64,000 bases of DNA from Candidatus Marinacidobacterium sp. (GTDB lineage Bacteria; Acidobacteriota; Vicinamibacteria; Marinacidobacterales; Marinacidobacteraceae): NCBI GenBank assembly GCA_965204755.1, contig OZ242011.1:1056001-1120000 (forward strand), written 5' to 3'. The first letter of the stretch is position 1; the number at the start of each line of letters is the position of its first letter. The notes beneath the pieces are model-generated. The model worked only from the letters and a program-made list of their open reading frames with translations. It was not told the origin of the DNA and searched no databases. Of this stretch, positions 57,238-61,322 are shown piece after piece. Made by a program: the position numbers and the translations under genes.

Positions 57238-58056
57238 GTGACGGAGACGAGCACGAGTTTCGTCGGGCCGCTCGGCTCGACGATCCACCACCTGCGCGCG
57301 GACGCGGCGACCGTGGCCGCCCTCGCCGGGCTGGACTGGACCGAGGGGTTCCGGCGGGTATGCCTCGACCCGGTGCGGGGAGTGGTGGTCCTCATGACCC
57401 CTTCGCGCCTCCACGAGGGCCTGACCGGGGTCTTCGACGACATCGTGGACTACGCGGCGGACGCGCTGGGCCGCGCCTCGACCAAACTCCGGAGCGTTCG
57501 CCTGCGCGGAAAAGGGGAGCCCCCGGGCACCGGCATGGAACCGGACTGCTCCTTCTATGTGGGGGAGCGCGCCCGCGCCTACCTCGAGGCCCTGGCCGAG
57601 AGCGAGAGAGCGGCGGACGCCTTCCTCGAGGAGAACGGCCCGGACCTCGTCGTCGAAGTCGAGATCACCCACGCCGATGCGGGCAAGATCGATCGCTACG
57701 CCGACCTGGGCGCGCGGGAGTTCTGGCAACTGCGCGGCAAGCGCGGGGAGAAGACGCTCCGGGCGGACTTCCTGGCGCTCCGCCGGGGAGCAGCGCCGCG
57801 TCCGCTGGAGGCTTCGGAAGTCCTGCCGGGGCTCACTTCGTCCGATGTCTGTCAAGCGGTCGAAGGCGTTCGACGGAGCCCGAGCCTTCGCAAACGCATG
57901 GAGGCGGTGGCCCGCATCGTCCGGCGCCGGCAGCAGAAGAGCATCCGGCTGCGCGAGGAACGGACCCCCTACGGGGAGGCGCCGGCCGTCGGCGAGCCGG
58001 CCGGCCCCGCAGTCGGCGCCATCCCGCTCGAAGGCCTGAGCACCGAGGAGCCCTGA
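57238..58056 (+). CDS. Uma2/DUF820-like putative endonuclease, copy 1
   Basis: [40 protein letters not shown] start after GGAGGAG and a TACCCT -10 at 57209. Confidence 0.85.
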
Positions 58057-58874
58057 TGGCCGAGACGAGCACGAGTTTCGTCGGACCGCTGGGTTCGACG
58101 ATCTACCACCTCCGGGCGGACGCCGACACCGTGGCCGCCCTCGCCGGGCTCGACTGGACGAGCCGCTTCCGCCGCGTGTGGCTCGACCCGGTGGGAGGGA
58201 TCGTCGTCCTCATGTCCCCGTCGTCCCTCCACGAAGGCCTGACCGGAATCTTCGACGACATCGTGGACGCCGCGGCGGACGCGCTGGGCCGCGCCTCCGC
58301 CAAACTTCGGAGCGTTCGCCTGCGCGGGAAAGAGGCGCCGCCCGGCACGGGCGTGGAGCCGGACTGCTCCTTCTATGTGGGAGAACGCGCCCGCGCCTAT
58401 CTCGACGCCTTGGCCGAAAGCCAGAAAGCGGCGGACGCCTTCCTCGAGGAGAACGGCCCGGACCTCGTCGTCGAAGTCGAGATCACCCACGCCGACGAGG
58501 GCAAGATCGACCGGTACGCCGACCTGGGCGTGCGGGAGTTCTGGCAACTGCGCGGCAAGCGCGGAGAGAAGACGCTCCGGGCGGACTTCCTGGCGCTCCG
58601 CCGGGGAGCGGCGCCGCATCCGCTGGAAGTGTCCGAGGTCCTGCCGGGGCTCACTCCGTCCGATGTCTGCGAAGCGGTCGAAGGCGTTCGACGGAGCCCG
58701 GGCCTTCGCAAACGCATAGAGGCGGTCGCCCGCATCGTCCGGCGCCGTCAACAGCGGAGCATCCGGCTGCGCGAGGAACGGGCCCCCTACGGGGAGGCGC
58801 CGACCGTCGGCGAGCCGGCCGGTCCCGCAGTCGGCGCCATCCCGCTCGAGGGCCTGAGCACCGAAGACCCCTGA
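58056..58874 (+). CDS. Uma2/DUF820-like putative endonuclease, copy 2
   Basis: Same motifs; TGATG coupling with copy 1. Confidence 0.85.
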   Translation: MAETSTSFVGPLGSTIYHLRADADTVAALAGLDWTSRFRRVWLDPVGGIVVLMSPSSLHEGLTGIFDDIVDAAADALGRASAKLRSVRLRGKEAPPGTGVEPDCSFYVGERARAYLDALAESQKAADAFLEENGPDLVVEVEITHADEGKIDRYADLGVREFWQLRGKRGEKTLRADFLALRRGAAPHPLEVSEVLPGLTPSDVCEAVEGVRRSPGLRKRIEAVARIVRRRQQRSIRLREERAPYGEAPTVGEPAGPAVGAIPLEGLSTEDP

Positions 58875-59695
58875 TGACCGGACTGAGCACGAGTTTCGTC
58901 GGACCGCTGGGTTCGACGATCTACCACCTCAAGGCGGACGCCGACACCGTGGCCGCCCTCGCCGGGCTGGACTGGACGAGCCGGTTCCGCCGCGTGTGGC
59001 TCGACCCGGTTGGAGGGATCGTCGTCCTCATGTCCCCGTCGCACCTCCACGAAGACCTGACCGGGGTGTTCGACGACATCGTGGACGCCGCGGCGAGCGT
59101 CCTGGGCCGCGCCTCGAAGAAACTCCGGAGCGTTCGGCTGCGCGGGAAAGGGGAGCCCCCGGGCACCGGCATGGAACCGGACTGCTCCTTCTATGTGGGG
59201 GAGCGCGCCCGCGCCTACCTCGAGGCCCTGGCCGAGAGCGAGAAGGCCGCGGACGCCTTCCTCGAAGAGAACGGCCCGGACCTGGTCGTCGAAGTCGAGA
59301 TCACCCACGCCGACGAGGGCAAGATCGACCGATACTCCGACCTGGGCGTCCGGGAGTTCTGGCAACTGCGCGGCAAGCGCGGGGAGAAGACGCTCCGGGC
59401 GGACTTCCTGGCGCTCCGCCGTGGAGCGGCGCCGCATCCGCTGGAGGCGTCGAAGGTTCTGCCGGGGCTCACTCCGTCCGATGTCTGCGAAGCCGTCGAA
59501 GGCGTCCGACGGAGCGGGGGCCGCCGCGAACGCACGGAGGCGGTGGCGAGCATCGTCCGTCGCCGTCAACAGCGGAGCATCCGGCTGCGCGAGGAACGAG
59601 CCCCCTACGGGGAGGCGCCGGCCGTCGGCGAGCCGGCCTGCGCCGCAGTCGGCGCCATCCCGCTCGAGGGGCTGAGCACCGAAGACCCCCGATGA
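58874..59695 (+). CDS. Uma2/DUF820-like putative endonuclease, copy 3
   Basis: Same motifs; TGATG coupling with copy 2. Confidence 0.85.
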   Translation: MTGLSTSFVGPLGSTIYHLKADADTVAALAGLDWTSRFRRVWLDPVGGIVVLMSPSHLHEDLTGVFDDIVDAAASVLGRASKKLRSVRLRGKGEPPGTGMEPDCSFYVGERARAYLEALAESEKAADAFLEENGPDLVVEVEITHADEGKIDRYSDLGVREFWQLRGKRGEKTLRADFLALRRGAAPHPLEASKVLPGLTPSDVCEAVEGVRRSGGRRERTEAVASIVRRRQQRSIRLREERAPYGEAPAVGEPACAAVGAIPLEGLSTEDPR

Positions 59696-60507
59696 CCGGA
59701 CTGAGCACGAGTTTCGTCGGACCGCTGGGTTCGACGATCTACCACCTCCGGGCGGACGCCGACACGGTGGCCGCCCTCGCCGGGCTCGACTGGACGAGCC
59801 GCTTCCGCCGCGTGTGGCTCGACCCGGTGGGAGGGATCGTCGTCCTCATGTCCCCGTCGTCCCTCCACGAAGGCCTGACCCGGGTCTTCGACGACATCGT
59901 GGCCGCCGCGGCGGACGCGCTGGGCCGCGCCTCGACCAAACTCGGGAGCGTTCGCCTGCGCGGGCAAGGGGCGCCCGGCACGGGCATGGAGCCGGACTGC
60001 TCCTTCTATGTGGGAGAACGCGCCCGCGCCTATCTCGGGGCGTTGGCCGAGAGCCAGGAGGCGGCGGACGCCTTCCTCGAGGAGAACGGCCCGGACCTCG
60101 TCGTCGAGGTCGAGATCACCCACGCCGACGAGGGCAAGATCGGCCGTTACTCCGACTTGGGCGTCCGGGAGTTCTGGCGTCTCCACGGCAAGCACGGAGA
60201 GAAGACGCTCCGGGCGGACTTCCTGGCGCTCCGCCGGGGAGCGCCGCCGCATCCGCTGGAGGCGTCGGAGGTCCTGCCGGGGCTCACTCCGTCCGATGTC
60301 TGCCAAGCCGTCGAGCGCGTCCGCCTGAGCCCCGACCATCGCGAACGGACGGAGGCGGTCGCCCGCATCGTCCGGCGCCGCCGGCAGCAGAGCATCCGGC
60401 TGCGCGAGGAACGGGCCCCCTACGGGGAGGCGCCGGCGGTCGGCGAGCCGGCCGGCGCCGCAGTCGGAGCCATCCCGTTCGAAGGCCTGAGCACCGAGGA
60501 CCCCTGA
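59692..60507 (+). CDS. Uma2/DUF820-like putative endonuclease, copy 4
   Basis: Same motifs; ATGA coupling with copy 3; one-codon deletion near GAPGTG. Confidence 0.85.
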   Translation: MTGLSTSFVGPLGSTIYHLRADADTVAALAGLDWTSRFRRVWLDPVGGIVVLMSPSSLHEGLTRVFDDIVAAAADALGRASTKLGSVRLRGQGAPGTGMEPDCSFYVGERARAYLGALAESQEAADAFLEENGPDLVVEVEITHADEGKIGRYSDLGVREFWRLHGKHGEKTLRADFLALRRGAPPHPLEASEVLPGLTPSDVCQAVERVRLSPDHRERTEAVARIVRRRRQQSIRLREERAPYGEAPAVGEPAGAAVGAIPFEGLSTEDP

Positions 60508-61322
60508 TGCCCGGATCGAGCACGAGTTTCGTCGGACCGCTGGGTTCGACGATCTACCACCTGCGCGCGGATACGGCGACCGTGGCCGCCCTCGCCGGTC
60601 TGGACTGGACGGAGGGGTTTCGGCGGGTGTGCCTCGACCCGGTGCGGGGAGTGGTGGTCCTCATGACCCCTTCGCGCCTCCACGAAGGCCTGACCGGGGT
60701 CTTCAACGACATCGTGGACGCCGCGGCCGACGCGCTGGGCCGCGCCTCGACCAAACTCGGGAGCGTTCGCCTGCGCGGGAAAGGGGATCCCCCGGGCACG
60801 GGTATGGAGCCGGACTGCTCCTTCTATGTGGGCGAACGGGCCCGCGCCTACCTCGAGGCCTCCGCCGAGAGCGAGAAGGCAGCGGACGCCTTCGTCGAGG
60901 AGAACGGCCCGGACCTCGTCGTCGAAGTCGAAATCACCCACGCCGACGAGGGCAAGATCGCCCGTTACGCCGACTTGGGCGTCCGGGAGTTCTGGCGCCT
61001 CCGCGGCAAGCACGGAGAGAAGACGCTCCGGGCGGATTTCCTGGCTCCGGACCGGGGAGCTGCACCGCATCGGTTGGAGGCGTCGGAAGTCCTGCCGGGG
61101 CTCACGCCGTCCGATGTCTGCCAAGCGGTCGAAGGCGTTCGACGAAGCCCGAGCCTTCGCAAACGCATGGAGGCGGTCGCCCGCATCGTCCGGCGCCGCC
61201 GCCAGCAGAGCATCCGGCTGCGCGAGGAACGGGCCCCCTACGGGGATGCGGCGGTCGGCGAGCCGGCCGGCGCCGCAGTCGGAGCCATCCCGCTCGAAGG
61301 CCTGAGCACCGAGGACCCCTGA
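60507..61322 (+). CDS. Uma2/DUF820-like putative endonuclease, copy 5
   Basis: Same motifs; TGATG coupling with copy 4. Confidence 0.85.
   Translation: MPGSSTSFVGPLGSTIYHLRADTATVAALAGLDWTEGFRRVCLDPVRGVVVLMTPSRLHEGLTGVFNDIVDAAADALGRASTKLGSVRLRGKGDPPGTGMEPDCSFYVGERARAYLEASAESEKAADAFVEENGPDLVVEVEITHADEGKIARYADLGVREFWRLRGKHGEKTLRADFLAPDRGAAPHRLEASEVLPGLTPSDVCQAVEGVRRSPSLRKRMEAVARIVRRRRQQSIRLREERAPYGDAAVGEPAGAAVGAIPLEGLSTEDP

Follow-up and report, generated by a model that had tools for sequence, protein, structure and literature searches.

The window analysed here, a stretch of 64,000 nucleotides (nt; G000:C1:1056001-1120000) from the single-contig, 3.98-Mb genome of Candidatus Marinacidobacterium sp. 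(71.7% G+C), contains an uninterrupted series of five genes for proteins of the Uma2 nuclease type. These genes, U1 to U5 (also A1 to A5), form array A: five co-oriented open reading frames (ORFs) of 271-273 amino acids (aa) without internal stops, at positions 57238-61322 on the + strand (Table 1). An earlier note, made from the letters of this DNA alone, had described five intact ORFs without intergenic DNA, joined by TGATG or ATGA overlaps, and this description is accurate: all five lie uninterrupted at these positions, and each of the four starts overlaps the preceding stop, three times as TGATG (1-nt overlap) and once as ATGA (4-nt overlap). A repeat search gave direct-repeat periods of 818, 818, 815 or 818 nt, and the reading frame rotates from copy to copy because the period falls one base short of a full gene. 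Among the copies, identity is 84.5-90.4% in amino-acid and 86.6-92.0% in nucleotide sequence. Three length differences separate them, at alignment columns 94, 249 and 273, and all three are whole codons, as had been noted. The motif K..RY..LG.REFW and a second long conserved motif are present in all five copies, and the conserved and variable motifs listed in the earlier note were each recovered as described. Residues 57 and 152, which adjoin H59 and K150, vary among the copies.

G+C at codon positions 1, 2 and 3 of the array genes is 0.75, 0.53 and 0.84-0.90, respectively, in keeping with genuine genes of this genome. Other frames are open too. Within 57360-61322, each gene's frame continues through the whole of the preceding copy, yielding ORFs of about 500 aa, and antisense ORFs of 215-260 aa overlie every unit of array A. 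Such read-through and antisense ORFs are to be expected because the DNA is 72% G+C, and third-position G+C backs only the five annotated frames in this region.

Table 1. Features of array A and its surroundings (positions in the window) and related loci elsewhere in the genome (positions on contig G000:C1).
Feature	Positions	Strand	Description
U1/A1, Uma2-type	57238-58056	+	GTG start, 272 aa; PF05685 25.1 bits (below the cut-off of 27); PDC-S17 31.2 bits
U2/A2, Uma2-type	58056-58874	+	272 aa; ATG overlaps U1 TGA by 1 nt; PF05685 31.5 bits; AlphaFold2 pLDDT 84.7
U3/A3, Uma2-type	58874-59695	+	273 aa; TGATG junction; PF05685 28.1 bits
U4/A4, Uma2-type	59692-60507	+	271 aa; ATGA junction, 4-nt overlap; PF05685 28.4 bits
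U5/A5, Uma2-type	60507-61322	+	271 aa; TGATG junction; PF05685 32.6 bits
Array leader	57133-57237	+	about 45-105 nt common to the leaders of arrays B and C
Hairpin	57101-57132	+	13-bp G+C stem directly after the DUF4013 stop; RNA fold
Candidate sixth-unit remnant	61323-61364	+	about 40 nt, in register with a unit start, without ATG
DUF4013 membrane-protein gene	56136-57092	+	upstream flank, outside the array; PF13197, 72.1 bits
Coiled-coil ABC/SMC-type ATPase gene	61531-63981	-	downstream flank, outside the array and convergent with it; 816 aa
Array B	3836190 to 3832247	-	four intact copies and a frameshifted fifth; 4/4 junctions TGATG
B fifth unit	G000:C1:3832150-3832909	-	frameshifted; odd C-terminal end
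Array C	2972133 to 2968060	-	intact C1; about 1.7 kb with a classical Uma2 gene; C2 fused in frame to C3
C2-C3 fusion	G000:C1:2968057-2969640 (L002:5058-6641)	-	527-aa double Uma2; junction stop and start lost
Classical Uma2, other subfamily	G000:C1:2969726-2970364 (L002:6727-7365)	-	212 aa; between C1 and C2; PF05685 32.1 bits
Classical Uma2 three-gene cluster	G000:C1:3148365-3150244		PF05685 matches
Classical Uma2 pair	G000:C1:3648157-3649296		PF05685 matches

Array A is not alone. The same subfamily occurs at two further sites of the genome, arrays B and C (tblastn and genome search), and in total the genome holds 12 intact domains and one pseudogene of this subfamily over three arrays. The 527-aa C2-C3 fusion retains the catalytic motifs in both domains, and other assemblies contain a double form of 558 aa (P0121) and a recombinant form of 348 aa (P0003). 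The odd C-terminal end of the frameshifted fifth unit of array B (...RRRRISRTDETAGRGGLSRY...) recurs in an intact 257-aa homologue from the ENA assemblies (P0028), and judged by this likeness, the truncated end of array B seems to be conserved across assemblies. In array C, short remnants of unit ends flank the 212-aa classical gene, as if it had replaced one unit. Besides this gene and the classical cluster and pair listed in Table 1, the genome contains one further classical Uma2 singleton.

The three arrays share a leader. By blastn, the similarity between those of arrays A and B begins 105 nt before the GTG, and in the three-way alignment the last ~45-60 nt are conserved, with the consensus ...GATC..CG(C/T)TAC(C/G)CTTCGGAG..CTTCGGAGGA..TCG; after a ribosome-binding site, each array then opens with GTG and the residues V-T-(E/D)-(T/S)-S-T-S-F. 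The earlier note had proposed a single promoter and ribosome-binding site in front of array A. The latter is readily recognised (GGAGGAG, 57226-57232, 5 nt before the U1 GTG), but a sigma-70 consensus scan found no promoter on the + strand. A TANNNT-like hexamer (TACCCT/TACGCT) is conserved in the leaders of all three arrays, and the array A version, TACCCT at 57209-57214, is a possible -10 element of a putative promoter. Within array A, a Shine-Dalgarno-like GAGGAG, GAAGAC or GAGGAC stands 6-7 nt upstream of every internal ATG, embedded in the codons of the conserved tail ...STE(E/D)P. Arrays A and B thereby have the layout of translationally coupled operons, with all genes on one strand, no intergenic DNA and stop/start overlaps at all four junctions of each, and such overlaps behind a single leader would fit co-expression of U1 to U5. 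None of the 18 sequencing runs listed for this DNA is recorded as RNA. Derivation of the leader from a decayed unit 3' end, by which each array would be a piece of a longer one, was rejected for arrays A and B (z of -0.7 to 0.6 against shuffles); for array C, the comparison gave z of 3.1-5.8, but on an out-of-register, G+C-rich stretch.

Hairpins on both sides of the array had also been reported, and both exist, at 57101-57132 and 61331-61354, although the flanks fold little better than shuffled sequence at 72% G+C: z is -2.05, a weak signal, for the 148-nt upstream flank and -1.19 for the downstream flank. Judged by the predicted fold, the upstream hairpin is probably the terminator of the DUF4013 gene. 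The downstream one, with a 9-bp stem, is formed by the ~40 nt that follow U5, and it could serve as terminator of the array. These nucleotides, 61323-61364, align locally and in register with the start of unit B2 (30/39 identical, z = 3.4; the best shuffle scored 34, above the observed 31) and less well with the starts of A2 and A5 (z = 1.7-2.3), which is suggestive, but not proof, of a remnant of the 5' end of a sixth unit. A trace resembling a unit start also follows C1 in array C, and the arrays probably end inside a truncated further unit.

That the tandem array is an artefact, dispersed paralogues or strain variants having been collapsed into a false series, is an explanation to which we give almost no credence. 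Short-read contigs of four runs from four studies were placed on 56900-61700; one run, X1, may stem from the source sample. The left flank is present in all four runs, and pieces from runs X1 and X8 extend from it into U1 (56900-57262); pieces from the same two runs begin in U5, at 61293 and 61286, respectively, and continue into the right flank. Copy-specific pieces from inside the array were found in the runs, among them an X1 piece (58773-58902) that crosses the U2/U3 junction. Their depth resembles that of the flanks, being 229-257 against 221.7 and 254 in X1, and 14.5-22.1 against 19.5 and 17.5 in X8. What speaks for an artefact is that the short-read contigs break within the array, no single piece spanning the whole of it, and that a joint from 57322 to 59244 appears in the X1 contigs only; with a side of just 21 nt in one run, this joint is too weak to be accepted as a deletion variant. 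Mis-assembly is very unlikely because depths are flank-like and two further arrays have an identical architecture; in addition, the genome is one 3.98-Mb contig, both array/flank joints are recovered, and the frames of the five units are perfectly phased. Mis-assembly, which the earlier note had named as grounds for abandoning its proposal, was not seen in the contigs of these four runs.

The assignment to Uma2/DUF820 made in the earlier note is borne out by profile and structure comparisons. PF05685 (Uma2) matches the five proteins with 25.1-32.6 bits, four of them above the cut-off of 27 (U1 reaches 25.1, E = 1.4e-5), over residues 46-166/169 and profile positions 18-130/133 of 172. Against PDB sequences, a profile built from 116 members of the subfamily gave no match at E <= 0.01, and an NCBIfam scan returned no family for U2. 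The AlphaFold2 model of U2 (pLDDT 84.7, pTM 0.79, residues 243-271 disordered) has the TT1808-type PD-(D/E)XK fold with its N-terminal subdomain; in Foldseek, it matches seven PDB chains at E <= 0.001, all from the Uma2 structures 9y1l, 1wdj, 6okh and 3ot2 (probability 1.00, target-normalised TM-score 0.55-0.61, 149-199 aligned columns, 11-20% identity, root-mean-square deviation 4.6-6.2 Å). Residues H59, E101-P102-D103, E140, E142, T144, D147, R153, Y154 and W163 are invariant in the alignment of 116 sequences and K150 is conserved in at least 90% of them; all five array copies have H59, P102-D103, E140, E142 and K150. In the U2 model, K150 opens helix 150-156, which follows strand 137-141. 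Mapped by pattern and predicted secondary structure, the putative active site is an H-PD-ExE-K variant in which the Lys has moved to the next helix. Compared with classical Uma2 proteins, those of the arrays are ~80 aa longer, with a predicted helix 201-213, a long basic helix 217-242 and a Pro/Ala/Gly-rich tail. The subfamily is a divergent, lineage-specific branch of Uma2/COG4636. A homodimer prediction (residues 1-245, two copies, own alignment) gave scores of 0.01, 0.92 and 0.24, whose median falls below the mark; they count neither for nor against a dimer.

The copies are under purifying selection. Pairwise dS within array A is 0.15-0.34, dN 0.056-0.090 and dN/dS 0.23-0.41; pooled pN/pS is 0.316 for the five copies (bootstrap 95% confidence interval (CI) 0.237-0.411) and 0.378 for all 12 (0.317-0.445), with 0.18 in the catalytic core, residues 99-166. 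These values, obtained from 5-12 recombining sequences and hence of low power for single sites, uphold the view that all copies are intact and selected; the copies are also too diverged for a recent dosage amplification, which the earlier note had likewise argued against. Its claim that amino-acid differences cluster fails: the dispersion of the 68 variable columns among 272 does not differ from that of permutations at windows of 5, 8, 10, 15 and 20 residues (p = 0.23-0.52). The variable columns of the array coincide with those that vary among distant members of the subfamily (mean entropy 1.50 vs 0.86 bits, Mann-Whitney p = 4e-8). The highest pN/pS in any 30-codon window is 0.64 in array A and 0.68 among all copies, none exceeding 1.

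Copies have also exchanged segments. Within array A, copies resemble each other more (86.6-92.0%) than they do any copy of array B (78.6-87.6%) or those of array C, and the nearest neighbour shifts along the gene, for A1 from A5 to A3, then to A2, then to A5/A4. Segment trees conflict, A1+A5 separating from A2-4 with support of 97-98 in segment 1 and array A being monophyletic in segment 4. In a PHI-type test, none of 2000 permutations reached the observed compatibility, whether for array A alone (63 informative sites), for A with B1-4 or for all 12 copies. From the switching neighbours, the conflicting segment trees and this test, we conclude that segments are exchanged inside arrays and from one array to another, by gene conversion or unequal crossing-over. 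A position-by-position orthology of the copies of arrays A and B was rejected, given that the A copies are closer to each other and nearest neighbours switch.

The surroundings of the arrays consist of housekeeping genes and do not form a defence island. Array A is flanked by genes for DUF4013, aconitase and a conserved ATPase, array B by those for cytochrome c peroxidase and DUF4159, and array C by those for an HtrA-type protease, a solute symporter and ABC transporter components. In the congener G001, the homologues of the DUF4013 protein (69% identity) and of the 816-aa ATPase (53% identity over residues 7-814) are encoded convergently, about 460 nt apart, with unrelated sequence filling the ~460-nt gap at the array A site; the homologues of the array C flanks (symporter 84%, HtrA-type protease 80%) are likewise convergent, about 76 nt apart. 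By this comparison, arrays A and C are insertions into gaps between convergent gene 3' ends, because their flanking genes are adjacent and convergent in G001. One flank of array B is a giant multi-copy protein that is not syntenic in G001. Two side observations concern the array A site. The gap in G001 (L060, G001:C1:1836821-1837285) contains a short sequence that may encode ~100 aa and lacks a counterpart in this genome, and the ATPase has weak PADLOC matches (LmuB at 37.2 bits, mad3, DndD), its Rad50-type NCBIfam match being far below the cut-off.

The subfamily is patchily distributed. With U2 as query, none of 24 genomes of the same family matches, the same-genus G001 included, and five of 16 genomes of the same order carry only Uma2 genes that are 29-35% identical. 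In a large protein database, 1474 matches at E <= 0.001 were found among 8000 candidates scored, of which ~25 clusters, all from ENA assemblies, are 76-96% identical and hundreds 58-70%. Among clusters at 50% identity, 458 match at E <= 0.001 and 65 at <= 1e-30, with many fragments and one 558-aa double form. When 37 loci returned from species-representative genomes were re-scored, 36 held a relative (52-70% identity, best segment), all in metagenome-assembled genomes (MAGs) of Gammaproteobacteria (including Ectothiorhodospiraceae and Thiotrichales) or Vicinamibacteria, with up to five loci per MAG; the nearest outside relatives in this set are dispersed multi-copy genes with 58-67% identity. 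Five of the MAG loci hold two or three copies within 6 kb, none back-to-back (smallest gap 338 nt), three are frameshifted and three truncated. Paralogues of a single MAG are homologous over the ORF and at most about 100 nt before it. In a comparison of leaders, only the ribosome-binding site and the start region of the MAG units can be aligned with this genome. A scan of JGI metagenomes added seven loci, all with 59-73% identity, and no close relative or array. A phage collection had no match and a plasmid collection one, at 32% identity.

A tree of 57 proteins places the 12 copies of this genome in a single clade with their close ENA homologues (SH-aLRT 100) and the MAG proteins in another (100). 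Within the former, ENA homologues pair with single copies (P0007 with B1/B2, P0012 with B3, P0027 with B4, P0006 with A2-4), and the paralogue lineages thus predate the split from those other populations.

Neighbours of the relatives were surveyed as well. Of 97 ORFs scanned, 40 had Pfam matches, and five of these 40 are of a defence or mobile type (a methylase fragment, HipA, AAA_21, SIR2_2 and an integrase); one other is a Uma2 copy, and the rest are housekeeping. These 40 neighbours disclose no conserved partner and no recurrent defence context. The relatives at L015 and L029, in gammaproteobacterial MAGs, adjoin aconitase-family genes (PF00330, PF00694), and an aconitase gene lies about 1.2 kb from array A; the link is probably a coincidence.

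Collectively, these results lead us to consider it reasonably probable that array A is one of three head-to-tail arrays of a horizontally acquired, proliferating Uma2 subfamily, of the paralogue-cassette type. On this explanation, the gene would have entered the lineage by horizontal transfer, and a compact unit of leader and ORF would have multiplied within the genome. The arrays would then have grown as units were duplicated in tandem and crossed over unequally; because the period is one base shorter than the gene, every stop overlaps the next start. Gene conversion would go on exchanging segments between copies, each protein being kept functional by purifying selection. The array would be read as one operon from the shared leader, the internal genes being translated by termination-reinitiation coupling, and each product would be a metal-dependent DNA endonuclease. 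Taken together, the behaviour seen (horizontal acquisition, proliferation within the genome, cassette growth, neutral insertion at 3' ends, no fixed partner, decay and fusion) would fit the published picture of Uma2, a selfish or solo-toxin-like, cassette-forming element, better than a purpose-built repertoire.

Several observations weigh against this explanation. Twelve copies under purifying selection, and paralogue lineages that recur in other assemblies, indicate long retention, which is not obviously expected of a pure parasite and makes a benefit to the host possible. Neither mobility machinery nor terminal repeats nor a phage or plasmid carrier was found, which leaves the movement of the unit unexplained, and the leaders of arrays A and B are not detectably derived from the 3' end of a unit (z about 0). 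Two segments of the array proteins, helix 57-76 beside the catalytic His (pN/pS 0.94) and loop 213-221 (0.92), both chosen post hoc, are under relaxed constraint, which would also fit, but does not show, divergence in specificity. Finally, we infer the biochemical and 'selfish' parts of the explanation, because no nuclease activity, transcript or phenotype is reported for any member of the family in the literature searched.

Those near-neutral segments, set in an otherwise constrained protein, are one ground for the proposal of the earlier note, a diversified and co-expressed repertoire of nucleases, or a set of hetero-oligomers, possibly directed against mobile elements; the variable helix and the 213-221 loop would then confer specificity. 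The intactness of the copies, their coupled starts behind a single leader, variation at residues 57 and 152 beside H59 and K150, and paralogue lineages conserved across assemblies point the same way, as does a weak match of three array copies to the PADLOC model PDC-S17 over the nuclease core (31.2, 32.1 and 37.6 bits, E = 3.6e-10 to 3.2e-8, with no curated cut-off). PDC systems are, in the part of their description available to us, a class of 145 untested candidates collected by 'guilt by embedding' (bioRxiv 10.1101/2024.01.29.577857); that text does not include S17, and a literature search by name found no mention of 'PDC-S17'. The arrays themselves are not embedded in any recognised defence system. 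Nor does variation behave as diversification would: no window exceeds a pN/pS of 1 (maximum 0.64-0.68), the variable sites are unclustered and fall on columns that vary family-wide, and gene conversion homogenises the copies instead of diversifying them. With housekeeping flanks at all three arrays, few and non-recurrent defence-type neighbours of relatives (5/40), one copy frameshifted and two fused, the diversified-repertoire and defence reading is unsupported, and we regard such a repertoire as improbable. An extension of it strikes us as distinctly doubtful, namely that the arrays encode co-translated Uma2 subunits of mixed oligomers, forming a horizontally shared, combinatorial innate-immunity module of host-associated marine bacteria in which helix 57-76 and loop 213-221 set the DNA targets and gene conversion shuffles these specificity segments. 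A benefit to the host might also lie in dosage or housekeeping, many copies supplying, in quantity, one nuclease for DNA repair or recombination and their differences being neutral drift. Purifying selection overall, drift-like substitutions on generally variable columns, retention of all catalytic residues and arrays that are stable in four runs of four studies would accord with this. However, a gene that matches in none of the 24 same-family genomes, the congener among them, does not serve a core function; dS of 0.15-0.34 marks an old amplification and not a recently selected one; a pseudogene and a fusion are tolerated; and dispersed, multi-copy paralogues across phyla are typical of accessory or selfish genes. 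We therefore hold the dosage explanation to be unlikely.

The proliferation of a Uma2 subfamily into paralogue cassettes has, as a genomic phenomenon, been known from publications since 2005-2009, and another instance is in itself no surprise. What this locus adds is of modest weight: the subfamily is divergent and longer, its three arrays have a leader in common and exact overlaps, a congener has array-free gaps at the matching sites, and relatives occur across phyla. Yet Uma2/COG4636 is a large and widespread family with a nuclease fold for which the literature searched reports no function and no biochemical assay, in agreement with the earlier note, which had called its function unsettled. 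In this respect, the locus amounts to a natural experiment, with 12 intact copies, one dead and one fused, three arrays of known relative age and array-free gaps in the congener; closely related variants with two unconstrained segments are a convenient source for assays that could assign a function.

The closest precedents are the Uma2 paralogue cassettes already in print, as far as the parts of these papers available to us go. [quoted passage not shown] Makarova, Wolf and Koonin (2009, PMC2701414) tabulated 114 COG4636-COG4636 neighbour pairs. Expansions of the family have been noted in Thermus (PMC1274311) and in Thermosynechococcus, with 15-17 copies (PMC9403480), and recent mobility in gammaproteobacteria (PMC3424549). 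The arrays described here share with those cassettes (PMC551604, PMC2701414) the fold, the migrated-Lys active site, transfer and proliferation, tandem duplicates and the lack of a fixed partner, and they have the same patchy distribution. They differ in that the subfamily is divergent, with Pfam scores near the cut-off and no sequence match in PDB, and in the ~80 additional residues, with the predicted C-terminal basic helix 217-242 and the disordered tail, that set it apart from classical Uma2. They differ also in the presence of three arrays per genome with a shared leader and an exact stop/start overlap at every junction, and in a host that is neither a cyanobacterium nor Thermus, with relatives in MAGs of Gammaproteobacteria and Vicinamibacteria. 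The solved structures TT1808 (1wdj), Ava_3926 (3ot2), 6okh and 9y1l are the top Foldseek matches to the U2 model; their chains (151-186 aa), titled 'putative' or 'uncharacterized', are without the C-terminal helix of the array proteins. PDC-S17 resembles the three copies tested over the nuclease core, but the scores are low and the arrays have no surrounding defence system. In Thermosynechococcus, tandem arrays of RPN genes (11, 3 and 3 copies) likewise represent a PD-(D/E)XK-type family expanding in single lineages, although RPN is a different protein family and, in the part of that report available to us, the Uma2 genes are not described as arrays (PMC9403480).

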